From contig NZ_JACVZV010000010.1 in the NCBI RefSeq assembly GCF_014654725.1, positions 10,404 to 74,403 of the forward strand: a stretch of DNA of 64,000 nucleotides. Reading direction: 5' to 3'. Made by a program: the position numbers and the translations under genes. Positions 11,474 to 37,906 of this stretch are shown one piece after another. This DNA is from Vulcanococcus sp. Clear-D1. Its GTDB lineage: Bacteria > Cyanobacteriota > Cyanobacteriia > PCC-6307 > Cyanobiaceae. The notes beneath the pieces are model-generated. The model had not been told where the DNA came from and ran no database searches. It saw only the letters and a program-made list of their open reading frames with translations. How positions within the stretch are numbered: the stretch's first letter is position 1; every line of letters begins with the position of its first letter.

Positions 11474-12592
11474 TCAGCTCGCAATGCTATCTAAGGTTTC
11501 AGATATCGGCTGGCTGAATAGGGAATGCAAGCCATCTGTCTTGCCAAAGTCTTCGCTGAGGACGGATGTCAAAAGGGATTCGAAACGTGAGACGTCAGCC
11601 TGGAACACGACTTTCACATCTTGACCGGCAGAATCACGCTTCGTCCAACCTGACTTGAATGGATCAAGAGGAGAGCGGGGACGCCCCTTCCAATTAAGAC
11701 GGCTAAAATCACTAGTGTCACCGAACGGTGAGTCTTGCTCAGGTGCGATGTCATCGCGAGCCTTTGCATTGACCTTGATTTTTACTCCTTGTGAATTTGT
11801 GATCAGATCGGGAGATACCGCAATTGCCGCGGCTAGAGGATCCCAGTGATAATATTCGCCTAGAGGATTCACAATAGCATCTTTCCACCAGGTGGCTGCT
11901 AGGTTAGCCACTCTCCCAGTTGCATTCTTTTGAAAGTTTGCAAGAAAGTCTTCGGTCAGTGGGGCCTGATTGGTTGCATCAAGAGGAACGATCGTTATGG
12001 GTATCCCTAGATCAAAGACGGTCTTAGCTGCGACAGGATCGATCCAGAAATTGAACTCAGCACGCTCGTTAGGAGTGTTATGAATGTTGCCTTTGACGTC
12101 AACTGCGCCACCCATAGAGACTATATGATCAATCTTACCTGCAAGCTTGGGAGATTTAGCTAAGACCTTAGCGAGTGTCGTGAACGTGCCCAACTCTAGA
12201 ATGGAAATCTCGCTCGGGCTTGTCAGGAGAACTTTTCGGAGAATGTCCACAGACTTTCCGTTTTGCCGCTTTGCAGCTTTGGTGTAGTCAGGAATTTTCA
12301 ATCCTCTGAGATTGTCTTCTGTGTACCGCCATTCAGAGGGATATTGATGGAAGCCCTGAAGGGTATTCTTGCCGCCTTCTCCTATGATGGGAAGTTGATC
12401 CGAAGGGATTCCTGCATACCTCAGAAGCCGGACTGCGTTGTTTTTCGCAGGAAGTGAGTGTGCAAGACCGGTTCCTTGAGTTAGAATGGCTTTGATGTTA
12501 AACTTGCTTTCGGGCTGTTTCGAGATTTGAGCCAAATAGAGGAGTGCGATTCGGTCGTCTAGCCCCATGTCTGTGTCGATAATCCAGTCCAT
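11474..12592 (-). CDS. inosine-uridine-preferring nucleoside hydrolase family protein (low-GC cargo gene)
   Basis: It has the N-terminal aspartate cluster 'MDWIIDTDMGLDDRIALLYL' (DxDxxxDD). Later motifs are 'IVSMGGAVDVKGNI..NERAEFNFWIDPVAAKTVF' and 'YHWDPLAAA'. The start is placed at the ATG at 12590-12592. The ORF is open up to 12724, so a longer N-terminus is possible. Confidence 0.8.
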   Translation of the reverse strand: MDWIIDTDMGLDDRIALLYLAQISKQPESKFNIKAILTQGTGLAHSLPAKNNAVRLLRYAGIPSDQLPIIGEGGKNTLQGFHQYPSEWRYTEDNLRGLKIPDYTKAAKRQNGKSVDILRKVLLTSPSEISILELGTFTTLAKVLAKSPKLAGKIDHIVSMGGAVDVKGNIHNTPNERAEFNFWIDPVAAKTVFDLGIPITIVPLDATNQAPLTEDFLANFQKNATGRVANLAATWWKDAIVNPLGEYYHWDPLAAAIAVSPDLITNSQGVKIKVNAKARDDIAPEQDSPFGDTSDFSRLNWKGRPRSPLDPFKSGWTKRDSAGQDVKVVFQADVSRFESLLTSVLSEDFGKTDGLHSLFSQPISETLDSIAS

Positions 12593-13423
12593 TGAATTAA
12601 TTCGCGTTGATTTTGATTTGATTTTTGTTTTTCGATCAAGGAAGCTGTGTTGCTCAGACCTTGAAGCTACAGCCTCGTGGAGCCTGTCAACTTGATGGCC
12701 TGCAAACACGGCGCTCATGAACATAAGCGTTAGGATCCCTCGCGAAAGAGAACGAGGACTGCAATTGAAGAATTCACAAGATTTCCCTTATCATAACTTG
12801 GTTGCTGAGGGGTGTCAATGTTTCAAGCGGCGACACCCCAGCTTCTGGAAAGGGCCGTTGGCGGTATTTATTTGGTTGCAAATCACGCAACAACGAGTCG
12901 ATTCAGCATCTTGCTGCAAGAGTGGTTAGATGCCCGATCCAAACCAATAGCGATAGCTGATTATGCGATTGCATAAGAGATTGGAGCATGCCGCGGGACT
13001 GACCCTGGAATCCCACCTGATCATTATCCACCCTGAACTGACCAGGTGGCGGGGCGAAGCAAAGGGAGACGGTTCACGTTACTTCGATACGCCAAGTGAT
13101 GACTTAACTACTCGAGCGGTTGGTTTTGACGGGGGAAAGTTCATGTTGTAGAACAAACGTGAGTTGTAGACCATCGGTGTCAACTTGAAGATAAGCCGAT
13201 CGGTGGTGACGGGAATCCCTTCATTGGACCGGACGCAATGAGAATGAATTCGAGGCCTATTAAAAGTCTGTACCAAACGGCCTTCTGGCCTGGCCCTGAC
13301 GGGGTTCTCCAGGATGCGTATCGCTCCAGATCCTTACACACGCCACCGCTCTCCAGAACCCTGCTGGTTCCACCGATATGCTCAGCTTCCTCAAGGTGCT
13401 GCCGCCCCGAGGAGCTTGAGGCG

Positions 13424-14217
13424 ATGCTCACCCGCCTGCGGCTGCCGGCGATCCGCGATCACCTTGATGCGCTGCTGGAGGAAGCGGCCAGACGTGAGAT
13501 GAACCTGCGTGAGGCGCTGACCTGGCTCTGCACAGCTGAGGTGGCTCGCAAGGACCATCTGCGGATGGGAATGGCGCTGCGGCTGGCGCGCTTTCCGTAT
13601 GTGCGGACGCTGGAGGCATTTGATTTCGAGGCTCAGCCGTCGATCGATCCGGCCCAAATCCGCGAGCTGGCCACCTGCCGTTGGGTGGCCAACGGCGACA
13701 CCTTGCTGCTGCTCGGACCGCCGGGTGTGGGGAAGACCCACTTGGCGGTGGCACTGGGCCGGGAGGCGGTGGGACTCGGTCACAGCGTCCAGCACGTCGG
13801 TGCGATGGAGCTGATCACAGCCCTGGCCAAAGCCCAGGCGCAGCACGCTCTGGAAGCAAGGCTGACGCAGTACGCCAAAACCCGGCTGCTGATCATCGAT
13901 GAGCTCGGCTACCTGCCGCTTGAGCCGAACGCGGCCTATCTGTTCTTCCAGCTGATCTCCCGCTGCTACAAGCGCGGCAGCGTGTTGATCACCTCCAACC
14001 GCCCCGTCATGGAGTGGGGCGAGGTGTTTGGTGATCAGGTGGTTGCCACGGCAATTCTCGATCGGCTGCTGCACCACAGCCACGTGCTGACGATCCGGGG
14101 CGACACTACCGGCTCAAAGAGAAACGTCGCAGCGGCCTCATCCGCCCGCAGGCGGGCGGTTCCTCCTCACAGGGCAGCGCTGGCCTACAGCCACCGCCGC
14201 CCAGTGAGGAGGCCTGA
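13424..14217 (+). pseudogene. istB: IS21-family IstB helper ATPase, frameshifted near its 3' end
   Basis: 'MLTRLRLPAIRDHLDALLEEAARREMNLREALTWL..RLARFPYVRTLEAFDFEAQPSID' is followed by Walker A 'LLGPPGVGKTHLAVALG' and Walker B 'LLIIDELGY'. At about 14104-14107 the frame breaks. The family-typical ending 'YRLKEKRRSGLIRPQAGG...EEA*' continues in the +2 frame to TGA at 14215-14217. The annotated ORF instead runs on to 14383. Confidence 0.8.
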
Positions 14218-14289
14218 GGGAAAACTCGAATCAGGCAGCACAGGTTCCGCAGCCCACAACAACAACGTCACGACACACACCGATGAGAC

Positions 14290-15399
14290 AACGATCGAAA
14301 AGGCACCGGAAGGACTCCATCAGCAGACCATCAGCTGGGCCAGATTTCGTGTCGGCGGAGGACCAAAAGCAGATGTCGCTTGACACGGGATCCTGAGTAA
14401 ATGCGAGAGCCTCCGGGATTTGGAGCGTTTTGCCCGGCGCCATCACGATGTGCTCACAGAGTCGCTTGGCCTTGGGCTCAAGCGTCCTCCATCAGATTCC
14501 GCCTTCCGTTACTTCTTCCTGCAGGTGGATGTCGATGGCGTCTGCGCCGCCATCCGTGACTGGACCATCGCCCAGATCCCAGGTGGGGCAACGGTTCTTG
14601 ATCAGTTGGTCTGTGACGGCAAGACCCTGCGAGGTTCGATCGTGCCCACCAGTGGTGGCGGTTCGGCGTTCATCGCCCAGGTGACGCTGTACTCCGCAGC
14701 TTTGGGTATCGCGATCGCTCAGGCTTGCTACGCCACAAGTGATAACCACGAGCGTGCGGTACTCCAAAGGTTGCTTGGTGAGTTCGATCTGGAGGGTGTG
14801 CTCATCCAGGCGGATGCGCTCCACACACAGCAGGCGTTTTTCGGCAGCTCACGGAGCAGGGGGCCGACTTCCTGCTGACGGTCAAAGCCAACCAGAAGAC
14901 TCTCTACCGCCAGATCGCCAGCCAGCTGGTTGGAAAGCGCAAGATCCCTTTCATCGCAAGTGATCACGAAGTCGGCCATGGGCGCGACATCACCTGGGAT
15001 CTCAGGGCCAAGGAGGCACCAACCCACATCAAGGAGAACTGGCACGGCGCCTGCTGGATTGCGGAAGTGATTGCAACAGGCATGCGCGATGGCAAGCCGT
15101 TCAACGCCACCCATCGGTTCATCACGAGCCTGCGCACTACCCCAGAAGCCCTGCTGCGTCTGGTGAGAGAGCGCTGGAGCCTGGAGAGCTGGCACTGGAT
15201 CCGGGACACCCAGTTCCGGGAAGACGCACACCGTTACCGCGGAAATGGCGCCGGTGCCATGGCCACACTGCGAACCGCAGCCATGAACCTGCTGCGCCTG
15301 GCTGGATTCGGCTCAATCCGCGAGGGCCTGCAAGCGGTGATGCATAACATCACGGCGCTGCTGGCGCTGGCGCGACGACAACCAGAGCTCAAGCCATGA
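14290..15399 (+). pseudogene. ISAs1-family (H-repeat-associated) transposase with at least two frameshifts
   Basis: 'GILSKCESLRDLERFARRHHDVLTESLGLGLKRPPSDSAFRYFFLQVD..DGKTLRGS..HERAVLQRLLGEFDLEGVLIQADALHTQQAFF' breaks at the T5 run 14837-14841. It then continues in another frame as 'RQLTEQGADFLLTVKANQKTLYRQI...RERWSLESWHWIRDTQFREDAHRYRGNGAGAMATLRTAAMNLLRL' to TGA at 15399. The N-terminal part ('QLGQISCRRRTKSR') lies in a third frame upstream of 14384. The left boundary is approximate. Confidence 0.75.
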
Positions 15400-15790
15400 C
15401 CTGACTTTGAATCAACCCTGTCAGCAGCCCAAAGTGCTGCTCCAGTTCAACCCGCTCAAACAGGTAGAGGAAGGTGGAGTTGCAGGGTGCCTTGGGCAGC
15501 TCCAGGCCCACCCAGCGCCGCGCCGAATGCCTGGTGATGGCGTTTAGCACAACGCTCCTGATCCATGGCGCTGCGGCAGCCACTCAGGATGCCCAGGATC
15601 GCCATCAACAGCAGTAACCACTACGAGTAACAGACACCTCGACGCTTGCGGCCTTCCGGTAGGGCCTGCAAGAACGCGATCAGATCAGCAGTGGCAGCGG
15701 GGTCGGCCAACAGACGGGAGCAGTCCCGACAAAATCGGCTCCAGCATGGCCGCGCCAGCTGCCTTGTGCCTTACTTTCAGTCGGCCCTGT
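15400..15790 (-). pseudogene. N-terminal remnant of a second ISAs1-family transposase, tail-to-tail with the first
   Basis: The minus strand reads 'LADPAATADLIAFLQALPEGRKRRGVCYS*WLLLLMAILGILSGCRSAMDQERCAKRHHQA', with an in-frame stop. After a frameshift it reads 'LELPKAPCNSTFLYLFERVELEQHFGLL'. Only about 110 codons of the family N-terminus remain. Confidence 0.65.
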
Positions 15791-15874: not shown

Positions 15875-16777
15875 ATGGCTGACGCGCTTTTCACAATTCA
15901 TGGTGGCAGCGGCAGGATCAAAAGAGGCGCAAACGGCAAATACAAATTAATCATTAGCGACCTTGACGCAACACATTCCTGGTTCACTAACCGCCCCAAT
16001 CGTCTGCAAGGGACACTCTCGACGCAAGAGATAACAGAAGGATGGGAGGGCTACTTTGGGAAGAATCCACCAAATTCTGTCGTCTCATTCCACGACGACA
16101 ATGGCGCATTTAAGCGGATCGCTTTTGAGCAACTGAAACCAAGACTCAAAGACGAAGGCACCAAAATGGTGTCCCGCATGAAAATGCTCCCGAGCACAGC
16201 AGCACCAGAAGCCGAAGGCCAATCTCCATCCATGAATGGCCTTGACTATGATCCCGTAACAGGATTCAAGCTCAAGCGAGGCGAATCAGTCTCAATCAAC
16301 GACCCCTCAGTCGTGGTAGACGATTTTACGCTAAGCCAAATCACGATCGTCAATAATTCATCTCAAAAGATGCAGGTTGATTACGTGATAGGCGAAATGA
16401 AGGCTGGCGCAATTCTGACATCGAGAGATCTTCCGGCTGGCACGAGTGTTGTGCTTACGGGCACAACACATGATAAGTGGGATGTATCGGCGAATGTCAT
16501 GGTCTGGGAAAAGACCAGCTGGAAGAAAGGCTTGATCATTCAAGCTGACAATCCATGGTACGAAACGCCTCAAATTGAGATCAATATGACAGGCCGGTAT
16601 TACAACTCAAGCCAATTCAAAAAAGATGTGTGGTATAAGCCAGGAGCCGGTGAAGATTGGCTGCTTCAGTCACCAAACCCTGTGCTCGACTTCAAATACC
16701 ACAATGACAATCCAGGCGATGGAGACGGCAATAAGGCATGGACATTTGTATTCACGAATCAAAACCCATCCATTTAG
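15875..16777 (+). CDS. hypothetical protein (300 aa) with an N-terminal domain shared with the next gene and a beta-rich C-terminal half
   Basis: It is a clean ATG-started ORF in very AT-rich DNA. The N-terminus 'WFTNRPNRLQGTLSTQEITEGWEGYFGKNPPNSVVS' aligns with 'WFEDRPLRGYGHFSFDEITGKAAWKKLFNGDKPNSVLS' of the downstream protein. I recognise no family. Confidence 0.6.
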   Translation: MADALFTIHGGSGRIKRGANGKYKLIISDLDATHSWFTNRPNRLQGTLSTQEITEGWEGYFGKNPPNSVVSFHDDNGAFKRIAFEQLKPRLKDEGTKMVSRMKMLPSTAAPEAEGQSPSMNGLDYDPVTGFKLKRGESVSINDPSVVVDDFTLSQITIVNNSSQKMQVDYVIGEMKAGAILTSRDLPAGTSVVLTGTTHDKWDVSANVMVWEKTSWKKGLIIQADNPWYETPQIEINMTGRYYNSSQFKKDVWYKPGAGEDWLLQSPNPVLDFKYHNDNPGDGDGNKAWTFVFTNQNPSI

Positions 16778-16847
16778 CGCCGAGTAGCGGTAGAAGTCTA
16801 ATTTTTGCTTCATTCACGAGCAGTTCACCCTCTCATTCATCGCAATC

Positions 16848-18503
16848 ATGGCCAACACCAAGATCCCAGCCAACTCCCTTCTCCTCGCTCAGTTTTCTCA
16901 ATTTCGGGTCAAGCAGCGCAAGCCAGATTCACGCAACTTCATGCTTGTTGCCAAGGGCGAGGAGATCAATACCGTCTGGTTTGAGGATCGCCCCCTACGG
17001 GGTTACGGCCATTTTAGTTTTGATGAAATTACCGGCAAAGCTGCGTGGAAAAAACTATTCAACGGCGACAAACCTAACAGTGTTCTTAGCGGACAAGGCA
17101 GGAGCCTTGTTTTTGAAACTGGGCACTTTCAGACGAGAGCCAACGGAACATACGCCTCTAGGATAAAATTGATTGGTGATCAAGCCAATCAGGATGTTAT
17201 TACTGGGCAATGGAAGAAATCATCTCTATTGATTGATTCAACCTCTGCTTCCGAAGAAGACAGCAGTAACACCATTGTGGAAGGTCTTGCGGGCCTACTT
17301 GTTGTTGGCGGCGGCCTTGTACTTTACAAGAAGATTCGCGCCAATCGAGTACAAGAGGCCGCAGAAGAACAAATCAATGAATTAGATCAAAACATTGCTA
17401 ACGCCGAAGACAATCTTGCCGACATGAAAGGCCAATTTGAAATCAATGAAGCAATTATAAAGGAAAATACGGCTAAGCTCAATAAGTTACAAGAACAGCT
17501 TAGTGCCTACCAAAAAGAGTTGGCCAATGCTGAAAAGCAGCTTGAATTAGCCAAACAATTTGGCGGCAACGAAGAAATCATTAAACTGTGGCAAGACGAA
17601 GTTAATGAGTGGCAAATGGATATTATGAGAATTCAAGAAAAGATAGAGCCAGTCAGTTCTGCGAACGAAGAGCTAATAGCTAAATCTTCGGACTTGCTGC
17701 AAGACATAAAAGACATCAGAGGCAATATTAAGATACTTGAAAACCAAAAAGAGGGGGTGCAAAAATTACAGACTATCATCGAAGAAGAACTTGAAGAAGA
17801 TCTCGATGATGTGGCCAACGATGCGAAGCCCTTCGAAACCGAGGCCTTCAAAGACAATCAAGCGGCTATTGAGGGGGGAGAAATGCCAGAAGTGAGGCTT
17901 TTGGATCAGATGATTCTTGAAGACGCAAATGAATACGAAGCACAGCTAATAAAAGCCATAAAAGACCCTTTTGGCAGTAACTACACTGAAAGCATCGAAA
18001 ACATCCTTAAGGACGTCATCTCCGAAGGACAAAATGAAGCATATGACGCACTTGCAAAAGCTACTTGCTCTGTGCCAGTTCTAGCAATGGGTGCCAAGCA
18101 AAAAGTCGCTGTAGGTGGTGGCTTTTGTACAGAGATTGAAGGTATTGATCCAGTCGTTGATCTCTATGCCGAGGAGTTCACAATCGAAGAAAATATGATC
18201 TTCAAAGGAAGTCATGTTTTCACCGAGTTTAGATCAGACTTGGCTGAAATAGGATATGAGGCAGAGATTGCTGAGCTTACCGAATTCGTAGCTGGTCCAG
18301 AATTTGCTGGTCAAGCCGGTGAGCTCATCGGCGCTTTCACAGAGGGAACTCTTGTAGCCGAAGAAGCAGTTGGTGCCCTCGACATCGCATCTATCGGCCT
18401 GGGTGGTGAGGCTTTTGTGGATGGCCTAGCATTGGAAGTTGGAGGGGATGCATTACTCGGCGAAATCGCGCTTGATATCCTTGAGATTGCTGTTATATTC
18501 TAA
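16848..18503 (+). CDS. hypothetical membrane-anchored coiled-coil protein (551 aa) with a paralogous N-terminal domain, one TM helix, a long heptad-rich region and an acidic C-terminal half
   Basis: The TM candidate is 'IVEGLAGLLVVGGGLVLYKKI'. A region of roughly 160 aa rich in E/K/Q/L follows ('EQINELDQNIANAEDNLADMKGQFEINEAIIKENTAKLNKLQEQLSAYQKELANAEKQLELAK'). The remainder is strongly acidic and ends in the hydrophobic 'LGEIALDILEIAVIF'. Confidence 0.6.
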   Translation: MANTKIPANSLLLAQFSQFRVKQRKPDSRNFMLVAKGEEINTVWFEDRPLRGYGHFSFDEITGKAAWKKLFNGDKPNSVLSGQGRSLVFETGHFQTRANGTYASRIKLIGDQANQDVITGQWKKSSLLIDSTSASEEDSSNTIVEGLAGLLVVGGGLVLYKKIRANRVQEAAEEQINELDQNIANAEDNLADMKGQFEINEAIIKENTAKLNKLQEQLSAYQKELANAEKQLELAKQFGGNEEIIKLWQDEVNEWQMDIMRIQEKIEPVSSANEELIAKSSDLLQDIKDIRGNIKILENQKEGVQKLQTIIEEELEEDLDDVANDAKPFETEAFKDNQAAIEGGEMPEVRLLDQMILEDANEYEAQLIKAIKDPFGSNYTESIENILKDVISEGQNEAYDALAKATCSVPVLAMGAKQKVAVGGGFCTEIEGIDPVVDLYAEEFTIEENMIFKGSHVFTEFRSDLAEIGYEAEIAELTEFVAGPEFAGQAGELIGAFTEGTLVAEEAVGALDIASIGLGGEAFVDGLALEVGGDALLGEIALDILEIAVIF

Positions 18504-30564: not shown

Positions 30565-31476
30565 GTGTTGGGGAAGGCAGTTGTGATCTCGCTGGACAAC
30601 CTCGCCGCGCTTGATCACCTCATCTGGCTGCGCACCGGCCAACGGGCAGCCGAAGCGCTGGCCTGCGCACAGCCCACCGTGAGCCGCAACAGCCGCCGTT
30701 GCCTGGAGGTCTTCGGCCTGGAGCTGGCCCGCAGCCGCGGCGAATGGCGACTGGTCGGCGATACGGAGCTGCTCAACCTGGAGCGCTCCGTGCATCAGCA
30801 GTGGCGCTGGAGCCGCCGCTGCACCCTACGGCTCGAAGCCCAGCACTGGTCAGCACCAGGGCTGGATGGCCTAGACCTCACCAACTGGCAACGCGGCAAC
30901 TTCAACCAGCTCGAGTACGAACAGCCCCACGCCCTCCTGAAAGACGGGGTGATCGATGCCTGGATCTGCTCAGCACCGGATGCACCGGTGCGTGACGGAC
31001 TCACCGCCCTGCGGCTCACCACCATGCCGATGCATCTGATGGTGCCGGTGGGTCACCCACTGGTTGATCGGCGCGATCCGATCGCCTGGGATGACCTGTT
31101 GCCCTACCCGGTACTGCCTCTGCCCAATGGCAGCTTCCCGGTCTTTGAAGGCGTGCTGCGCCGATGCGGCCTCTTGCCCAGTGCAGAACGGGAACAGGCG
31201 ATGAAACAAGCCCCCTGGTTTGGGCAGGTGCCGGTGGAGTCGATGCTGATCGGCTACTCGTCGCCGCTCACCCTGCATCTGTTTGGCGACGAGTGGGTAC
31301 GCCTTCCGCAGCGTTTACCCGTAGACGTTGGCGATGTGCTGATGGTGCGTGATGCCTACCGCGATCACCCGCGCACCAAGGGCTTGTTCAACCTGCTGAT
31401 TGATCACCTCAGCCGCCTGGCTGCCCCGCACCCTGAGGTGACCGTGCACCGCAGCCCCGTGGCTTACGTCGTGTAG
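30565..31476 (+). CDS. LysR-type transcriptional regulator
   Basis: The N-terminal wHTH is 'LDHLIWLRTGQRAAEALACAQPTVSRNSRRCLEVFGLELARSRGEW', followed by a roughly 200-aa effector-binding-like domain. The start is GTG. The TAG stop at 31474-31476 lies inside the left att repeat. Confidence 0.7.
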   Translation: MLGKAVVISLDNLAALDHLIWLRTGQRAAEALACAQPTVSRNSRRCLEVFGLELARSRGEWRLVGDTELLNLERSVHQQWRWSRRCTLRLEAQHWSAPGLDGLDLTNWQRGNFNQLEYEQPHALLKDGVIDAWICSAPDAPVRDGLTALRLTTMPMHLMVPVGHPLVDRRDPIAWDDLLPYPVLPLPNGSFPVFEGVLRRCGLLPSAEREQAMKQAPWFGQVPVESMLIGYSSPLTLHLFGDEWVRLPQRLPVDVGDVLMVRDAYRDHPRTKGLFNLLIDHLSRLAAPHPEVTVHRSPVAYVV

Positions 31477-31487
31477 TCGGCGTTGAT
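31468..31487. repeat. left direct repeat (attL core) of the integrative element, an orphan copy of the argJ 3' end
   Basis: GTCGTGTAGTCGGCGTTGAT matches 36681-36700 at 18/20 positions. Its reverse complement encodes INADYTT plus a TAA stop at 31464-31466. Confidence 0.8.
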
Positions 31488-31541
31488 ATAGCACATTGCT
31501 CAGAACAGCTGCTATCATTGGAGTTTTGCATTCCTGAAAAG

Positions 31542-31599
31542 TGACACAGCCGTGACACAAGGCCTGTTGCCGCCCATCCCCTGACACAAACTTGACACA
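31542..31599 (+). promoter_or_regulatory. four direct TGACACA repeats (putative integrase arm-type sites, left arm)
   Basis: TGACACA occurs at 31542, 31553, 31582 and 31593, as two pairs with 11-bp spacing. They lie between attL and the integrase start. Confidence 0.6.
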
Positions 31600-31617
31600 C
31601 TCCTGCGTCGACCCACC

Positions 31618-32916
31618 GTGACCAAAAGCGAGGACGGAACACTTGTACTGAACAAGACAAAGATATTCAACGCCGAAAATTGCTATATCTACCAACGTGG
31701 AGGAACCAAGTCAAAATACTGGCAGTTTTATTATTGGGATTCAGAGGGAAGGGAAGGGTTCAGAATTAGAAGATCACTAAGGACCAAAGACTTTCTAACC
31801 GCCCAATCACTTGCCCAGAAAGAATATATCAACATCAAAGCAAAAATCCAGAACGAAGAGTCACTGCAAACGCTAACAGTCGGAGAAATGGCGAGGATAT
31901 TTCTTGCCAAGAAGAAGTCTACAATAAGCTCGGCACCACACGCAGGGGTGACACCAGAAACTTATCGAGTGCTGAAGAATAAATGCAGGAAGTTAATTGA
32001 CTACCTTGGAGAAAACACAAGAGTTGATCACCTCAAACGAAATGCATTTGAAGGCTATGAGCAGTGGCGAAGAGATGGACACGGAGGCAAGATACCTAAA
32101 ACAAAAACAACAATCAAGGCTGAACTATCTACCTTTAAATCTGTTATTCAGAATATCGCAGTCAAAGATAAGAGAGTAATTAGCAATTCCCCAGACATCC
32201 CTGAGATCAAGGTACCTCGCACCGAAGCACGACACAGGAGGAATCACTTTAGAGACGACGAACTAAAAATACTACTTAGAACAATACATGAATGGAAAGA
32301 AGAAGATGTAATCAGGAAAACAGCAGGGCTTCACAGGAAAATAATTGCTTGCGCCATAGAGTTAATGCTGAATAGCGGAATTCGTGTTGGCGCAGCAAAG
32401 AAAATCAGATGGCGTGACATAAGAATTAATTCTAGAGACAGCCGAGAGCAGCAGAGGCTCTACAGAATTATTACGGTGCCGCCAGAGAATAACAAGACCG
32501 GCAAGGAATATGAATGCAATTGCGAGGTAGCACTTGTGCTGAATCGGCTGAGGACAGTTTCTAGCTTCACCAAGTCAAGTGACCTACTATTCTGCAATCA
32601 GAAAGACGGAAAATCTTTTTCTTCTAGGATTTGGGCAGATGCCTGGAACCAAATAATTGCTAAAAGCAAGCTTGAAAACGATACAGGCAGAAAGTTTTCG
32701 TACTACTCTTTAAGACACACCTATGCAACCATATCACTAGCAAACAAAGTTCCACTGCAACTTCTTGCATCAAACATGGACACAAGCACTAAGTATATTC
32801 AAGACCATTATTATCACCATGAGCCCGAAGGATTGACGGCGGAACTTAATCCTATAAAAAGAACGAGAAAACTAACAGGGGGCGAAATGTACAGCACATA
32901 TGTTACGCCACAATGA
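31618..32916 (+). CDS. int: tyrosine site-specific recombinase (phage-type integrase)
   Basis: The C-terminal catalytic region contains 'NSGIRVGAAKKIRWRDI' (Arg I), 'YSLRHTYATISL' (HxxR) and 'STKYIQDHYYHH' (Tyr nucleophile region). The start is GTG. Confidence 0.85.
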   Translation: MTKSEDGTLVLNKTKIFNAENCYIYQRGGTKSKYWQFYYWDSEGREGFRIRRSLRTKDFLTAQSLAQKEYINIKAKIQNEESLQTLTVGEMARIFLAKKKSTISSAPHAGVTPETYRVLKNKCRKLIDYLGENTRVDHLKRNAFEGYEQWRRDGHGGKIPKTKTTIKAELSTFKSVIQNIAVKDKRVISNSPDIPEIKVPRTEARHRRNHFRDDELKILLRTIHEWKEEDVIRKTAGLHRKIIACAIELMLNSGIRVGAAKKIRWRDIRINSRDSREQQRLYRIITVPPENNKTGKEYECNCEVALVLNRLRTVSSFTKSSDLLFCNQKDGKSFSSRIWADAWNQIIAKSKLENDTGRKFSYYSLRHTYATISLANKVPLQLLASNMDTSTKYIQDHYYHHEPEGLTAELNPIKRTRKLTGGEMYSTYVTPQ

Positions 32917-33006
32917 ATTCAATAAAAGGATGGAAATACGAGGGAAGGGAAAGCGATCAACTATTAGTATAAAAGATGACTGATATAGATTTGCGAACTC
33001 AAAAGA

Positions 33007-33399
33007 TCATTCCTCCTCATACTTAGAGAATGAGGTGAGATAACTTTTTGAAGGTTCAACATTTTCATCCTCTGAGTATGATACAGCATAGACCACAGCT
33101 GTCTGAGAGCCCGAGGCACCGAAGTCCTGATTAATTGTTGAGGCTTCAGTTTCTCCAAGGTGCTTACCCAGCCACAGTATATCCTCAGGAGTTAATGAGC
33201 CAAATGGATTATCTTCATCTTGACGGTTAACCCAGCAAATAGGATCAAGAGAATCCCAATTGCAAGCCTGCACATCATCAACATCTATTTCGTACACTAC
33301 AACTTTTGCAAAGTCAAAATTCATATCAAGCTCATCATCAAGCTTTGCCCAAAGAGACTCTTTATCATCATCCTCAAGGGAATCAAAAAGGCTTTCCAT
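33007..33399 (-). CDS. small, extremely acidic hypothetical protein (130 aa)
   Basis: The sequence starts 'MESLFDSLEDDDKESLWAKLDDELDMNFDF..' and ends '..SYSEDENVEPSKSYLTSFSKYEEE'. Roughly one residue in four is D or E and very few are K or R. I recognise no family. Confidence 0.5.
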   Translation of the reverse strand: MESLFDSLEDDDKESLWAKLDDELDMNFDFAKVVVYEIDVDDVQACNWDSLDPICWVNRQDEDNPFGSLTPEDILWLGKHLGETEASTINQDFGASGSQTAVVYAVSYSEDENVEPSKSYLTSFSKYEEE

Positions 33400-33533
33400 G
33401 CAAAAAGGCGGTATTCTCTACTTCTCCATCATAGCGCCTACCGCTAGAACAGGCAACCTACTAGAGAAACGGTCAACGATGCAGACAAACTCAAGAATAA
33501 ATCAAATATAATAGAATTGCCAGAAAGAATGAG

Positions 33534-34160
33534 TCAGCCCCTAGAGTGAATGGCAGCTGCCAATTTCTCCCAAGACGCATGAGCCCCTTTGTAGTTACAT
33601 CCAGGAGGTGCTGCCGAAAACGCACTTACATACTGATTAAATCCAACTTTACGCAACCTTCTTTGAGACTTTCCACCTAATGCGCATACAACAGCATTTG
33701 GAAACAACTTGATCTCCTCTAAGAGGTAATTTGTAACGCAAGCTTTTTCTATGCCAATAGGAATAGTGCCACTCTCCTTCTCTGCTGAGCAAAGGACAGA
33801 ATCAGTCAAGAGAGACTTGCAGAGTTGCTGATCGAAAGTTAAGCCTGGAAAACACATATCTAGAATTAATCGTACCCTTTTATGAAACAGATCAGTCTGA
33901 GAGCGATAGCATTCTTCGGTATATCTTATTGAATCATCAAGAGAAGAAAACGACTCAGATTCATGCGGGTCTCCAGGCTCTGCAAAAATCAAAATCAGCT
34001 CAACTTCTTCTGGTTTTCCATTGGCACCACATATGCCTCTTGGAGCAAAACCCTTGGACGGACAGAATTTTATACTTTTGCATGATGACTCTAGGAGAGG
34101 GCAAGGAGACCAGGCTTGCTGCAAAAGCTTCAGCAGAGAGCTATTCATGCTAGACAGCAA
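33534..34160 (-). CDS. uracil-DNA-glycosylase-superfamily-like protein (divergent)
   Basis: The layout resembles family 4/5 UDGs. N-terminal Cys residues come first ('CPLLESSCKSIKFCPS'). 'ELILIFAEPGDPHE' matches the motif A region (GE.PG). 'VLCSAEK..ACVTNYLLEEIKLFPNAVVCALGGKSQRRL' follows. 'FSAAPPGCNY' occupies the place of the HPS motif B. This is pattern recall only and has not been searched. Confidence 0.4.
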   Translation of the reverse strand: MLSSMNSSLLKLLQQAWSPCPLLESSCKSIKFCPSKGFAPRGICGANGKPEEVELILIFAEPGDPHESESFSSLDDSIRYTEECYRSQTDLFHKRVRLILDMCFPGLTFDQQLCKSLLTDSVLCSAEKESGTIPIGIEKACVTNYLLEEIKLFPNAVVCALGGKSQRRLRKVGFNQYVSAFSAAPPGCNYKGAHASWEKLAAAIHSRG

Positions 34161-34273
34161 TAACTTAGTTTGAAGTATATCCCATCTGCTCTTTTCGTCA
34201 AGCGACAGGGTTGACAGCGCAAGGGACTAGCGCTATAATAAGTCTGCCAGGCTTCAGACATATTAACTAAAAC

Positions 34274-34292
34274 CTATATAAATAGTATTGAC
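34274..34292 (+). promoter_or_regulatory. 19-bp repeat copy 1 (CTATATAAATAGTATTGAC), a putative operator/promoter
   Basis: It matches 35364-35382 at 18/19 positions. It contains the near-palindrome CTAT-ATAA-ATAG and runs into a TTGAC(G) -35-like hexamer, with TATTCA 17 nt downstream. Confidence 0.5.
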
Positions 34293-34532
34293 GCAATGCT
34301 GTCAGGCCAATATTCACATATTCTATCCAATTTGGGTCAAGCAGATGCCGCTCAGTTTGTTTAGAAGTAAATATTTTCCTTGCCAGGACAGGGATTACCT
34401 GGAGGTTATTGGTGTCTCCAATGAAACAGAGGATAACTCCAGAATCAATCATTAAGCCTTTTTCAGGTAAGTCTCCAGCATCCCCTCCTATTATAATACA
34501 TAAAGAATTAATGTTATATCCTCAATTGCAGT

Positions 34533-35168
34533 ATGACCCAAATGAAAACCAACAGCAAAGGAAAAATAGCCAGAAATTGGCTTTTGGGTAGCCAGTCATT
34601 AAATCAACACTTAAGAAGCTTATCGTCAAAAGGATTTTGGAGCCAGGTATTCAAAGAATACATCTCCTACCAATTCGATTCGGTTTTTAAACCATCATAC
34701 TTTGGGACTATCTGCTGGACACCATTCTTATTTGAATTTAATGAAGCAGTGAAGGAGACAAGCCACTTTAAGAATAAGTTTCTTACGGCTTTATGCGACT
34801 GCAAGTTGTATCAGATACCACATTTACCAGACAGGCCTAGAATAATCTTTTTCCATGAGACAAAAGAAACTCTAGTCAATCCAACATCTTCTAATCCGAA
34901 GTACAAACGTGCCCTGCATACCCATTTTCACCTAGAGGGCTCTGACAAGATTCCCGATGTTCATTATCTCAATATGCTTATCCAGGCCAAAGTAAGGCCA
35001 GGATTTGACAGGCTAAAACGGAGAGATACTGCCTTACATAAGGCTATTGTCATCCAAGATTGGATTAGAGATTTTCATGCAGACTATAATCTGAAGGACT
35101 TCTGCTCTAATAGATATCGCCAAGATGGTGACTTAGTGATCGACTACAAGAACTCCGATCTGGGATAA
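34533..35168 (+). CDS. hypothetical protein with HUH-endonuclease-like motifs (possible rolling-circle Rep/relaxase-type protein)
   Basis: The ordered motifs are 'KFLTAL' (FLTLT-like motif 1), 'ALHTHFHLEG' (HUH motif 2) and 'FHADYNLKDF' (YxxK motif 3). Spacing is about 47 and 55 aa, like the pC194/pUB110-type Rep layout. Motif-level only. Confidence 0.35.
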   Translation: MTQMKTNSKGKIARNWLLGSQSLNQHLRSLSSKGFWSQVFKEYISYQFDSVFKPSYFGTICWTPFLFEFNEAVKETSHFKNKFLTALCDCKLYQIPHLPDRPRIIFFHETKETLVNPTSSNPKYKRALHTHFHLEGSDKIPDVHYLNMLIQAKVRPGFDRLKRRDTALHKAIVIQDWIRDFHADYNLKDFCSNRYRQDGDLVIDYKNSDLG

Positions 35169-35363
35169 GTACTCAGATGCAGAATCAATGAATTTATTTG
35201 ACTTTTAGGTTTCCAAGGCCTCATATAGCCAATCTTGGATTACAGGTTCAGTTTCTAGGGTTTTTCTGGTATTTTCACTGGAGTTTAGTGGGGTTCTGAT
35301 TCATGTACCTGCGGAATGCCCTTTGGCCTAGTTTCCGCATCATCTCTAGAGCAAGGCGGGAAG

Positions 35364-35382
35364 CTATATAAATAGTAGTGAC
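35364..35382 (+). promoter_or_regulatory. 19-bp repeat copy 2 (CTATATAAATAGTAGTGAC), a putative operator/promoter
   Basis: It is 18/19 identical to copy 1. It lies about 70 nt upstream of the RHH-like ORF at 35450. Confidence 0.5.
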
Positions 35383-35449
35383 TTCAGGATATTTACGCCT
35401 ATAGCATAGTTCTGCAGTCGTCAAAGAATTCAATCTATCGAAATCCAGT

Positions 35450-35632
35450 ATGCAAACTATCTATCGCAAGGGATTGGTATTTCAGGTAAGTTTAAAGTGC
35501 AGGGAATCCGAGAGACTTCTCCAGCAAAGGAATGAGTTGATGGACTACTATAAAATGGATTGCTCTGGCTTGATAAAGCATTTGATCTCAAAGGAGCATT
35601 ATTCAATAAGAAGGCAACTTAACTTGGTCTGA
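35450..35632 (+). CDS. small ribbon-helix-helix (CopG/Arc-like) DNA-binding protein candidate
   Basis: 'GLVFQVSLKCRESERLLQQRNELMDYYKMDCSGLIKHLISKEH' fits a beta-strand/helix/helix pattern. A further 46-codon ORF (35635-35775) follows 2 nt later. Confidence 0.35.
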   Translation: MQTIYRKGLVFQVSLKCRESERLLQQRNELMDYYKMDCSGLIKHLISKEHYSIRRQLNLV

Positions 35633-35761
35633 TTATGCTGAGCTCAGAAACCAGAAAGATCATCAGGAAGATCAGGGAGACCTGCAAAGATCCATTGACC
35701 AAGAAGCCAAGCTTTAAGTCAGACGATGAAGTTATTGAATTTGCAATAATGAGCCTAGATC

Positions 35762-36340
35762 TCAAGATGCGTTGACGTGATCCTTGAGAATCCTCTGGAC
35801 AGTGGCCAGAGACAGACCTGTTTGATCACGAATAGATCTGTAAGACTCACCTTCATCACGCAGTCGGACCACAAGGCGTTCCTTTTTGTCTGAGGTCTTT
35901 GGACGGCCACCAAGGTTGCCACCAGTTCGTCTGCGGTGCTCTACAGATTCTCTGGTGCGCTCCTGGATCAGAGAGCGTTCAACCTCTGCAAGGCCCGTTA
36001 GCAGGCCAATGACCAATGGCGCCAGCTTTCCAAGACCACTGGTATTGATCAAGCCATCCAAGGTGCGGACATAGACCCCTTGGATCTGAAGCTCGTTGAG
36101 TCGGTTGATTACTTCGACTTGTGATCTCCCAAGTCGATCCAGCTTTGACACGACTAATTCATCACCTTTCTGCAAGAAGTCAAGACACTTTCGTAACTGG
36201 CTGCGCTTTTCCAGTGGTGCTCTTGACGAGACCTTCTCAGCAAACACCTCGCTGCATCCTGCGGCCCTTAACTCTGCGATCTGGGCCTCAGTGTCTTGAT
36301 GGGCTGTTGAGCACCTTGCGTAGCCAATGGATTGCCCCAT
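35762..36340 (-). CDS. serine recombinase (resolvase/invertase family)
   Basis: 'IGYARCSTAHQDTEAQIAEL', 'LVVSKLDRLGRS' and 'GLAEVERSLIQERT' are catalytic-domain signatures. The C-terminal HTH is 'SYRSIRDQTGLSLATVQRIL'. Confidence 0.9.
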   Translation of the reverse strand: MGQSIGYARCSTAHQDTEAQIAELRAAGCSEVFAEKVSSRAPLEKRSQLRKCLDFLQKGDELVVSKLDRLGRSQVEVINRLNELQIQGVYVRTLDGLINTSGLGKLAPLVIGLLTGLAEVERSLIQERTRESVEHRRRTGGNLGGRPKTSDKKERLVVRLRDEGESYRSIRDQTGLSLATVQRILKDHVNAS

Positions 36341-36374
36341 AGCTCAAAACCCAGTGGGTATCCGAACAGAGCAA

Positions 36375-36572
36375 TCATACAGTGTTTCTGGTACGCATTT
36401 TTCTTTGTATGCACTTGCATTTAGATCGTGCTAAGAACCCCTGCGTTTTCATACACGGCTGGACACTCAGCGCAGCCAAAAGGCCGCCAAGCCCCAGGAG
36501 CTCTCCACTCGCAATGGCCATAAAGCCGCTTAGCGAGCCCATCGGCCAGCCAATCCCCACGCCCCAGAACAA
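36375..36572 (-). CDS. possible small hydrophobic protein with a basic tail (65 aa)
   Basis: 'MFWGVGIGWPMGSLSGFMAIASGELLGLGGLLAALSV' is followed by 'KCKCIQRKMRTRNTV'. Codons are GC3-rich. It lies directly upstream of, and co-oriented with, the serine recombinase. An overlapping plus-strand ORF (36382-36609) cannot be excluded. Confidence 0.3.
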   Translation of the reverse strand: MFWGVGIGWPMGSLSGFMAIASGELLGLGGLLAALSVQPCMKTQGFLARSKCKCIQRKMRTRNTV

Positions 36573-36613
36573 AAAGACCGCTATCGAGCAGCCCAGAGAA
36601 TGGGCATAATCGG

Positions 36614-36631
36614 TGACACAGCTGTGACACA
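36614..36631 (+). promoter_or_regulatory. two direct TGACACA repeats (putative arm-type sites, right arm)
   Basis: GTGACACAGCTGTGACACA (36613-36631) is 18/19 identical to GTGACACAGCCGTGACACA (31541-31559), with the same orientation and the same 11-bp spacing. Confidence 0.6.
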
Positions 36632-36676
36632 GAGATTTTCAGGCTCTTAGAAGCACTGCAGCACAAGGGATCTTGA

Positions 36677-37906
36677 CTAGGTAGTGTAATCGGCGTTGAT
36701 CCGCACGTATTGATCGGAGAGGTCGCATCCCCAGGCGCAGCCGCTGCTGGAGCCAGCGCCAACCTGAATGCGAATCAGCACCGTGTCGTCTTTGAGGTAG
36801 GCACCAGCCGCCCGATCGCGCATGTAAGCCGAAGCCGAGGGGCGATCGAAGGCGAGGGGTTGGCCAGCCGCCATCAGCTGGTGCTCACCGAGCCACAGCG
36901 CTACCGCATCAGGATCCATCGGCACGCCGGCGCGGCCGGCGGCGGCCACGATGCGGCCCCAGTTGGGATCGCGGCCGTGCACGGCGCACTTCACCAGGGA
37001 GGAGCCACAGATCGTACGGGCGATGGCACGGGCAGCGGCGTCATCGCTGGCGCCCTCCACCTGCACCTCGATCAGACAGGTGGCACCTTCGCCATCCCGA
37101 GCGATGGCTTGAGCCAGGTGTTGCGACACCGCTGTCAGGCCGGCCTCCAACGCCTCGTAATGCTCGGGGTTCAGGGGCTCACCGGCTGCAAACGCCAGGT
37201 ACGTGTCGTTGGTGCTGGTGTCGCCATCCACCGTGATCGCATTGAAGGAGCGATCCACCGCCCGCTTCACCATCGCCTGCCACACATCGGCCGGCACGCC
37301 GGCGTCGCAACTGAGATAGCCGAGCATGGTGGCCATGTTCGGGTGAATCATTCCCGAGCCCTTGGCCATGCCGCCGATGCGCACGCGGCGGCCACCCAGC
37401 TCGGCCTCAAGAGCGATTTGCTTGTCGATGAGGTCGGTGGTGAGGATTGCCGTAGCGGCAGCGGAACCACCCTCAGGGCTGAGCGCTTCAACCAAGGGAT
37501 CAATCCCCGCCAAGAGGGTGTCCATCGGGATCGGCACGCCGATCACACCCGTGGAGCAGATCAGCACCTCCTCGGCCGTTAGCCCCAGACGATCCGCCAT
37601 GGCCTGGGTGGCGCGCTGGCTATCGATCAGGCCCCGATCACCGGTGCAGGCATTGGCCTGGCCGGAATTGGTGAGCACCGCCCGGGCCCGGCCTCCGCTG
37701 GCCTGCAGCCGCTCGGCGCACAGATCCACGCAGGCGGCTCGCACCAGTGAGGTGGTGAAGGTACCGGCGCAAACGGCGCCTTCCGGCGCCAGCACGAGGG
37801 AGAGATCAGGCTTGCCGGAGGCCTTCAGGCCCGCCGTGATGCCGGCGGCGAGAAAGCCTTGCGGGGCCGTGACGCCGCCGGAGATGGGCTGCCAGGGATG
37901 CGTCAC
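36677..37906 (-). CDS. argJ: bifunctional ornithine acetyltransferase / N-acetylglutamate synthase
   Basis: The autoprocessing site context 'PNMATMLGYLSCDA' is present, along with 'GMAKGSGMIHP' and the C-terminal 'YVRINADYTT'. Confidence 0.93.
   Translation of the reverse strand: MTHPWQPISGGVTAPQGFLAAGITAGLKASGKPDLSLVLAPEGAVCAGTFTTSLVRAACVDLCAERLQASGGRARAVLTNSGQANACTGDRGLIDSQRATQAMADRLGLTAEEVLICSTGVIGVPIPMDTLLAGIDPLVEALSPEGGSAAATAILTTDLIDKQIALEAELGGRRVRIGGMAKGSGMIHPNMATMLGYLSCDAGVPADVWQAMVKRAVDRSFNAITVDGDTSTNDTYLAFAAGEPLNPEHYEALEAGLTAVSQHLAQAIARDGEGATCLIEVQVEGASDDAAARAIARTICGSSLVKCAVHGRDPNWGRIVAAAGRAGVPMDPDAVALWLGEHQLMAAGQPLAFDRPSASAYMRDRAAGAYLKDDTVLIRIQVGAGSSSGCAWGCDLSDQYVRINADYTT
36681..36700. 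repeat. right direct repeat (attR core), the functional 3' end of argJ
   Basis: GTAGTGTAATCGGCGTTGAT is the repeat. Its reverse complement encodes INADYTT, followed by the TAG stop at 36677-36679. Confidence 0.8.

Follow-up and report, generated by a model that had tools for sequence, protein, structure and literature searches.

How the argJ gene of the picocyanobacterium Vulcanococcus sp. Clear-D1 comes to have two copies of its last codons, one at its working end and an orphaned one about 5 kb away at the end of a LysR-type regulator gene, is the question raised by the locus described here. The window, meaning the whole stretch of DNA analysed, comprises 64,000 nt of assembly GCF_014654725.1 (contig NZ_JACVZV010000010.1, positions 10,404-74,403 of the forward strand), and the contigs and genomes of relatives that were compared with it are labelled L001 and so forth. 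With a probability of roughly 0.9, we conclude that positions 31477-36689 (5,213 bp) are an integrative element that was inserted in the tail of argJ by a tyrosine integrase.

The borders of this element are two direct repeats, GTCGTGTAGTCGGCGTTGAT at 31468-31487 and GTAGTGTAATCGGCGTTGAT at 36681-36700, which are identical at 18 of 20 positions and start 5,213 nt apart. A repeat search extended them to 31465-31487 and 36678-36700 (20/23 identical), and both contain a perfect 11-nt core, TCGGCGTTGAT, at 31477-31487 on the left and 36690-36700 on the right. Read on the minus strand, either copy gives ATC AAC GCC GAY TAC ACN ACN and a stop, encoding INADYTT-stop, with the left tail ending in TAA at 31464-31466 and the right tail in TAG at 36677-36679. 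The degenerate pattern ATHAAYGCNGAYTAYACNAC was matched twice in the 64-kb window, both times by the repeats, compared to a shuffle expectation of 0.04, and in none of 100 shuffles of the window were two or more matches obtained. Flanks with a guanine-plus-cytosine (GC) content of 0.62-0.67 enclose an interval of 0.43. No transfer RNA (tRNA) or transfer-messenger RNA (tmRNA) gene was found by ARAGORN across the whole window, and an Rfam search of 31000-37200 returned no match. The first-pass annotation, made from the sequence alone, had described the repeats and their spacing, the shared peptide end in synonymous codons, the right copy as the working end of argJ and the left as an orphan overlapping the LysR TAG stop, the AT-rich interval between GC-rich flanks, the lack of a tRNA at either border, an integrase starting 130 nt from the left repeat and a serine recombinase at the right end; all of this was borne out by the coordinates, open reading frames (ORFs) and searches, the integrase start at 31618 being measured at 131 nt past the left repeat.

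That the interval was inserted, rather than ancestral, was read from relatives in which the same site is unoccupied. In six loci (L090, the NCBI metagenome-assembled genome (MAG) GCA_041176325.1; L091-L093, from JGI; and L095 and L096, from ENA), argJ (90-94% identity) faces a convergent ortholog of the LysR gene (70-86%), and the two genes share exactly 13 nt at their ends, where an overlap of about 13 nt had been predicted for an empty site. The junction in these loci, ...GCTTACGTCGTGTAATCGGCGTTGATGCGGACGTATTGATC..., corresponds to the left flank of the window joined to its right flank at the core, and after removal of 31477-36689 in silico the window aligned with L090 in one ungapped 600-nt block at 85.8% identity. 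The attL end matches the tail of the empty sites L090-L096 except at base 31476, which is G in the window and A in the empty sites. This base forms, with A at 36689, one of the three mismatches in the 23-nt repeat; since all unoccupied sites of relatives have A and the G is private to the left copy of the window, this mismatch is not a host-versus-element difference. An identical LysR protein, P0058, adjoins the empty site in L095 and L096 and an occupied site in L094. The alternative that the repeats are due to chance or ancestry, with the 5.2 kb representing conserved core synteny, is refuted by the empty sites and by the ungapped alignment of the in silico deletion; the shuffle expectation, the GC contrast and an integrase family that moves with the same tail in unrelated flanks likewise speak against it, nothing was found in its favour, and we consider its chances to be close to nil.

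Both host genes stay intact after integration. The C-terminus of ArgJ is identical to that of 10 related picocyanobacteria, and the whole protein is 77-93% identical to ArgJ of Cyanobium, Vulcanococcus and Synechococcus genomes; the host is a freshwater picocyanobacterium of the Cyanobium/Synechococcus subcluster 5.2 type. The LysR gene, for which a protein search found orthologs at 70-96% identity, has its TAG stop (31474-31476) inside the left repeat copy, and it is intact because the orphan argJ tail, in which its last four codons and stop sit, is on the left side of the crossover. The claim that the element splits a former argJ/LysR overlap was thus supported by the six empty loci, with the restriction that the overlap context exists only in one sub-lineage: in the more distant L002, L003, L032 and L008, homologs of orf145, orf102 and UbiB come within ~80 nt after argJ, with no LysR gene, and only the sub-lineage of the window has LysR next to argJ.

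The LysR gene itself was also considered as cargo of an older element, of which the left tail would be the tail, and this was rejected. A third copy of the tail is missing from the window and from the DNA between LysR and orf145, the GC content of the LysR gene is that of the host, and several lineages with an unoccupied site have the LysR/argJ overlap. Two points are left after this rejection, namely that LysR is absent at argJ in distant species and that an island in L001 carries a distant LysR-like gene (14835-15674), which lies downstream of argJ in the opposite orientation and is 38% identical over the first 90 amino acids (aa). L001 (CALRQW020000003.1) is the closest species-level relative of the window genome; it and L032 (CALRKZ020000004.1) have ArgJ proteins 93% and 79% identical to that of the window and a Cyanobium-type synteny, and these MAG records, entitled Asaia bogorensis (L001) and Mesorhizobium carmichaelinearum (L032), seem to be mislabelled. 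On the argJ side, the element contains a hairpin resembling a terminator, with a run of T, at 36575-36594 (minus strand), ~85 nt downstream of the rebuilt argJ stop, and may supply a terminator for argJ besides its tail.

The enzyme that would have carried out the insertion is encoded beside the left repeat. In an alignment of 22 members of the integrase family, residues R256, K293, R366, Y393 and Y398 were invariant; the protein has an extended N-terminal region ahead of the catalytic domain, its gene adjoins the attachment (att) site, and a sequence search against solved structures gave no match. Short repeats of the kind expected for such an enzyme were found at both ends of the element. 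Of seven copies of the heptamer TGACACA in the window, six lie within the ends of the element, where they share one strand and form pairs with 11-nt spacing, and the pattern TGACACAN4TGACACA has three matches in 64 kb, all at the element ends, compared to an expectation of 0.02. These repeats are conserved in position in L083-L089, L097, L099, L100, L102-L104 and L109, and the P-arm pair recurs in L097 (attP) as well as in L085, L086 and L099 (attR). In the circularised element, TGACACA repeats would lie on both sides of the core and therefore have the layout of lambda-type attP arm sites, and we presume the pairs to be arm-type binding sites of the integrase. The position of the crossover was narrowed by L085, whose core differs between its ends, with GTTAAT in attL (element side) and GTTGAT in attR (host side), a difference that bounds the exchange on the right; this base and the mismatches to the left confine strand exchange in L085 to GTGTAATCGGCGTT. 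From the window and L085 combined, strand exchange would fall within TCGGCGTT.

The small serine recombinase at the other end of the element, which is retained at the right end of most family members, might instead be thought to perform integration and excision. This is very improbable, given that the protein is of the 192-aa resolvase/invertase type, with no more than a resolvase N-terminal domain and HTH_7, whereas large serine integrases (>400 aa) have in addition a large C-terminal recombinase and zinc-ribbon domain, and that it is the integrase gene, not the serine recombinase gene, from which the tail and the arm repeats lie at a constant distance. In addition, other integrase lineages at argJ have other arm repeats, and an imperfect 20/23 repeat with an 11-nt core and arm sites is the signature of a tyrosine integrase. 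The serine recombinase probably resolves multimers of the circle.

By analogy with lambda-type integrases, the tyrosine integrase would assemble on attP, where the core is flanked by one TGACACA pair on one side and two on the other, and would recombine the attP core with the identical TCGGCGTT(GAT) in the last codons of argJ. The effect on the host genes can be read directly from the sequence: attP carries the final seven codons of argJ in synonymous form together with a stop, and integration therefore leaves the sequence of the ArgJ protein unchanged. The original argJ tail is orphaned at the far end of the element, where it still provides the last codons and the stop of the convergent LysR gene. 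The features on which this account is based are listed in Table 1.

Table 1. Coordinates of the argJ element, its attachment sites and the adjoining host genes in the window
Feature	Position	Strand	Evidence or remark
LysR-type regulator gene	30583-31476	+	297 aa as called (longest ORF, 303 aa, from 30565); PF03466
attL	31464-31487	-	Orphaned original argJ tail, INADYTT + TAA, GC-rich codons; includes the shared core
P' arm (presumed)	31542-31599	+	Two TGACACA pairs, 11-nt spacing within pair; between left core and integrase gene
Tyrosine integrase	31618-32916	+	432 aa; PF00589 E 2.3e-12; PHROG 1 integrase E 5.7e-33
Acidic ORF, presumed cargo	33007-33399	-	130 aa longest (called 105 aa, 33007-33324); ORF call
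orf208, presumed cargo	33534-34160	-	204-208 aa; PF03167 E 0.0087, below curated cutoff
orf211, conserved backbone gene	34533-35168	+	Homologs in L084-L086; a divergent homolog in circular contig L097
Small serine recombinase, resolvase/invertase type	35762-36340	-	192 aa; PF00239 E 1.4e-32, HTH_7
P arm (presumed)	36614-36631	+	One TGACACA pair, 11-nt spacing; 58 nt from right core
attR	36677-36700	-	Element-supplied argJ tail, INADYTT + TAG, AT-richer codons; joins argJ body at core 36690-36700
argJ, intact	36677-37906	-	409 aa; PF01960 E 5.5e-142, residues 20-409 covered; last codons now element DNA

Given this account of the window, relatives of the integrase were used to see where else such elements reside. 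Integrase homologs at 60-83% identity formed ~40 protein clusters, nearly all on short metagenome contigs, and the DNA upstream of the integrase gene was readable in 12 distinct loci (L083, L084-87, L088-89, L097-L100, L102-L104, L106 and L109), with the contigs of L098 and L106 ending within the arm, before the tail position. Nine of the 12 have, ~130 nt upstream of the integrase gene, an argJ tail in that same orientation and next to it the TGACACA pairs, whose positions are conserved; L099 and L104 have a decayed copy of the tail, and in L102 only the arms are recognisable. The first-pass annotation had suggested a search for the unit at other argJ loci, and whole elements of 5.7 and 4.5 kb, bounded by two tails and ending in the argJ C-terminus, were indeed recovered in L085, L086 and L099, while L100 holds a different family member (integrase 76% identical) beside a LysR 3' end very like that of the window. 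The proposal that the element itself supplies the replacement tail also held, as the attR of L085 and the attP of L097 both encode INADYTT-stop. Around this tail, 28 nt in attR, TTGACTAGGTAGTGTAATCGGCGTTGAT, are identical in the window and L085, whose integrases are 76% identical, and the replacement tail therefore travels with the element. Together with the repeats and the empty sites, this family sharing one target agrees with the original reading of site-specific integration into a protein-coding 3' end. In L088 (330-447) and in L089, which has the same sequence, repeated GGCTGGCTGA/T motifs lie directly outside the orphan tail and may be the arm of another element in tandem.

A circular form carrying a single repeat copy, which had also been proposed as a check, was found for a relative and not for the exact window copy. 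The 4,770-nt contig L097 (Ga0214917_10024578) has a 127-nt direct terminal overlap, as is usual for circular assemblies, leaving 4,643 bp of unique sequence with a GC content of 0.405, and encodes an integrase and a serine recombinase (82% and 64% identical to those of the window), part of a methyltransferase and a divergent relative of orf211, with no host gene. Its att region reads, in order, a P-arm TGACACA pair, CTTACGTCGTGTAATCGGCGTTAAT, the P' arm repeats and the integrase gene, and is collinear with the attP rebuilt from the window. L097 would thus represent a circular form with attP, which is strong, though not final, evidence of excision in a relative rather than in the window copy.

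Several observations weigh against the account given here, or at least against an element that is still mobile. The histidine of the HxxR box is replaced by tyrosine (YSLRH) in the integrase family, and integrase activity is therefore assumed from conservation. Among the five larger ORFs of the element, no Xis or HTH_17-type gene was detected (Pfam, PHROGs, NCBIfam and PADLOC), nor was one detected in a 65-aa ORF (Pfam), in a search that did not extend to other ORFs below 100 aa, where small excisionases are easily missed; an excisionase gene thus appears to have no recognisable candidate. A circular-looking contig such as L097 can also come from a tandem array. The exact attP pattern TAGGTAGTGTAATCGGCGTTRATAYANCAY had no match in IMG/VR viral contigs or JGI metagenome contigs, a scan that missed L097 because that contig carries the other tail variant, CTTACGTCG... 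No empty-site allele or excised form of the exact element was obtained by exact-protein look-ups of LysR (303-aa ORF and 297-aa call), ArgJ and the integrase, which returned either nothing or only Logan contig SRR12467541_457, the same contig. Finally, some copies in relatives appear to be fixed relics, because the left tails of L099 and L104 have decayed.

These points bear most directly on the possibility that the element integrated site-specifically and is now a fixed, non-excising relic, kept only for its working argJ end. Besides the lack of a detected excisionase, the decayed tails in L099 and L104, and the failure to find the attP or the empty allele of the exact copy, such a reading could appeal to the G/A mismatch directly beside the core; it is nevertheless unlikely in view of how much of the element is preserved. 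The integrase, serine recombinase and orf211 ORFs are full length with every invariant family residue kept, the 11-nt core is perfect in both copies, the six arm repeats are intact, and L097, with its 82%-identical integrase, is circular. The GC content of 43%, compared to 62-67% in the flanks, therefore indicates little amelioration, which also argues against a relic. The window copy may still be active, and replication may possibly be started by orf211.

The backbone of the family comprises the integrase, the small serine recombinase and orf211, with the two further ORFs being presumed variable cargo. Serine recombinase homologs at 62-64% identity lie at the same position and in the same orientation in L085, L086, L097, L099, L100 and L108. 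The right-hand 0.9 kb of the element, containing this gene and its upstream region (35800-36600), has a GC content of 0.51-0.55, compared to ~0.41 elsewhere in the element; this is probably a gene-specific composition and not a second insertion, because the serine recombinase gene keeps its place across the family. Between the serine recombinase and the P arm, where the local GC is ~0.55, the 65-aa hydrophobic ORF (36375-36572, minus strand) has two membrane-like segments and a basic tail, gave no Pfam match and is uncalled in the public contig.

The product of the third backbone gene, orf211, is one of a small family of proteins of ~200 aa (65 representatives among 1.84 billion proteins), and its homologs are 37-77% identical (37% in L084-L086). 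It had no match in Pfam, PHROGs, NCBIfam or PADLOC, and no PDB match by sequence or profile search or by Foldseek of an AlphaFold2 model with a predicted local distance difference test score (pLDDT) of 54. The motifs FHE, HTHxH and YNxKD are kept in most of 27 relatives, with the histidines not invariant in distant members, and the predicted beta-alpha-beta-beta-alpha-beta order resembles that of HUH nucleases in what is, at this pLDDT, a poor model. A role for orf211 as an HUH-type nuclease or replication initiator is therefore possible on these predictions and speculative. The divergent intergenic region ahead of orf211 contains a perfect sigma-70 consensus (TTGACA-17-TATAAT) at 34211-34239 (plus strand), ~300 nt from the gene; counts from a promoter and terminator scan were not above those of shuffles.

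As for the presumed cargo, the acidic ORF had no match in Pfam, PHROGs, NCBIfam or PADLOC, and orf208 had only a sub-threshold match to the uracil-DNA-glycosylase superfamily (PF03167) and none to solved structures by sequence. In their place, relatives carry methyltransferases or a protein with a near-threshold match to DUF5906, a domain typical of primase-helicase proteins of satellite-type elements. The protein in question, from L083, is 556 aa long and matches DUF5906 with an E value of 2.3e-05 and 25.4 bits, just below the Pfam cutoff of 27.6 bits. No capsid, conjugation or packaging gene was found in the 5.2-kb element (Pfam, PHROGs), and no primase, helicase or polymerase was recognisable in the window copy (Pfam, PHROGs, NCBIfam).

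This small gene set raises the question of how the element is transferred. It could be a satellite-like or vesicle-borne hitcher, dependent for transfer on a helper cyanophage or on vesicles, as proposed for tycheposons, elements of that type having been found enriched in vesicles and capsids (Hackl et al., bioRxiv 10.1101/2020.12.28.424599). The small size, the lack of capsid, conjugation and packaging genes and the DUF5906 match in L083 would suit this possibility, which we rate at somewhat below even odds: a scan of IMG/VR viral contigs with the integrase found no relative, and a BLAST search against phages and plasmids returned phage integrases at 20-25% identity only and no plasmid match. 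Dependence on a helper would concern the route of transfer only and is compatible with the integration mechanism described above.

The family is not alone in using this site. In Cyanobium and Prochlorococcus, the argJ position is occupied by no fewer than three further element types, which differ in their arm repeats. In L094 (8940-10221), an integrase 34% identical to that of the window lies beside the same orphan tail, with CGTAAGCG-type arm pairs 11 nt apart, and the matching opposite CGTAAGCG arm was found directly after the argJ stop in L001 (11227-11420) and L004 (4073-4270). L007 (11215-11420) contains GGCTGTTCTGGCCAG twice at this position. In Prochlorococcus L009 (11215-17626), two copies of TGTTACC lie 11 nt apart, and the island that comes after them encodes a small serine recombinase and part of an integrase; this integrase fragment, 37% identical over 119 aa, is the only link in integrase sequence to Prochlorococcus. 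Beyond argJ, the islands have lower or mixed GC and extend over >10 kb in L001 and L007 and at least 6.5 kb, to the contig end, in L009. The DNA of the argJ tail is nearly invariant from Prochlorococcus to Cyanobium, across hosts with a local GC of 35% to 68%, which plausibly explains its use as a target: like a tRNA gene, it offers a broad and stable one. A much broader proposal is that the argJ 3' end is a pan-picocyanobacterial island seed, equivalent among protein-coding genes to the tRNA sites of tycheposons and used through at least four arm specificities (TGACACA, CGTAAGCG, GGCTGTTCTGGCCAG and TGTTACC), from marine Prochlorococcus to freshwater Cyanobium, by a diversified integrase superfamily, whose minimal members of 4.6-5.7 kb are self-replicating circles with orf211 as a previously unrecognised HUH-type initiator; in this full form we regard it as rather doubtful.

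Integration into the 3' end of a protein-coding gene with a replacement end is a known principle, and what is new here is the target, the family and the conserved, uncharacterised gene orf211. In Escherichia coli, phage 21 and e14 use a lambda-family integrase to integrate into the 3' end of icd and bring a near-synonymous replacement end. As at argJ, a conserved metabolic gene is hit at its 3' end, its protein remains functional and the original end is orphaned at the far junction. The differences are in size, with tens of kilobases for phage 21 (a prophage) and e14 (a defective prophage) and 4.6-5.7 kb for the argJ elements, which lack phage structural genes, and in the duplicated segment, which is ~160 nt in icd and ~23 nt in argJ; the phylum and the target gene also differ. 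The lambda intasome is built on core sites and on arm-type sites in the P and P' arms. The argJ element resembles it in having a core flanked on both arms by directly repeated short motifs 60-120 nt away, an extended N-terminal integrase region and an integrase gene beside attP. Specific to the argJ family are the TGACACA pairs with 11-nt spacing, one on P and two on P', and no Xis gene or accessory-factor sites were identified in the argJ element.

Among elements of picocyanobacteria, the closest in character are the tycheposons of Prochlorococcus, for which only seven tRNA/tmRNA sites were described and whose typical genes include tyrosine recombinases and small serine recombinases (Hackl et al., bioRxiv 10.1101/2020.12.28.424599), and the 'cryptic elements' of marine Synechococcus, which use a tRNA-Phe site (Grebert et al., PMC8995045). 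Like the argJ element, both are small elements of picocyanobacterial hosts with a phage-type tyrosine recombinase and variable cargo, often with a small serine recombinase or TnpR-like resolvase, and both share with the argJ elements a duplicated att motif, repeated re-use of the site and larger islands beyond it. They differ in that tycheposons have a tRNA/tmRNA attachment site with partial tRNA copies at the borders, compared to a protein-coding 3' end for the argJ element, and in that many tycheposons carry a primase, helicase or polymerase, none of which is recognisable in the window copy. The hosts of argJ elements are mostly freshwater Cyanobium-type, and the likeness to tycheposons described here is one of gene content. 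The family is thus best described as lambda-type integrative elements, tycheposon-like in gene content, that target a protein-coding 3' end. Within the searchable literature, no paper was found that links argJ with integration or an attachment site. The first-pass annotation had called the target unusual, and this stands in comparison with the published tRNA-only sites of tycheposons; it does not stand in the sense of rare, as at least four element types use argJ.

Elsewhere in the window, positions 1-21000 have a lower and uneven GC content (0.42-0.63, compared to ~0.66 elsewhere) and are probably a separate flexible island. This region contains a giant FG-GAP/Calx-beta repeat protein ORF (5-9724, >3,239 aa, possibly extending past the window start), a nucleoside hydrolase gene (11474-12724), an IS21-type IstB ATPase gene (13238-14383) and two unassigned low-GC ORFs (15875-18503).

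For the biology of these organisms, the argJ 3' end emerges as a protein-coding hotspot that is used repeatedly by several element lineages across hosts of differing GC, and surveys of islands or tycheposons that are anchored on tRNA genes will miss this argJ-targeting class. With a 23-nt target, clear arms, five genes and a circular relative, the element offers a compact model for gene flow in freshwater Cyanobium, and the family is a candidate tool for site-specific integration in picocyanobacteria, a group that is hard to engineer.

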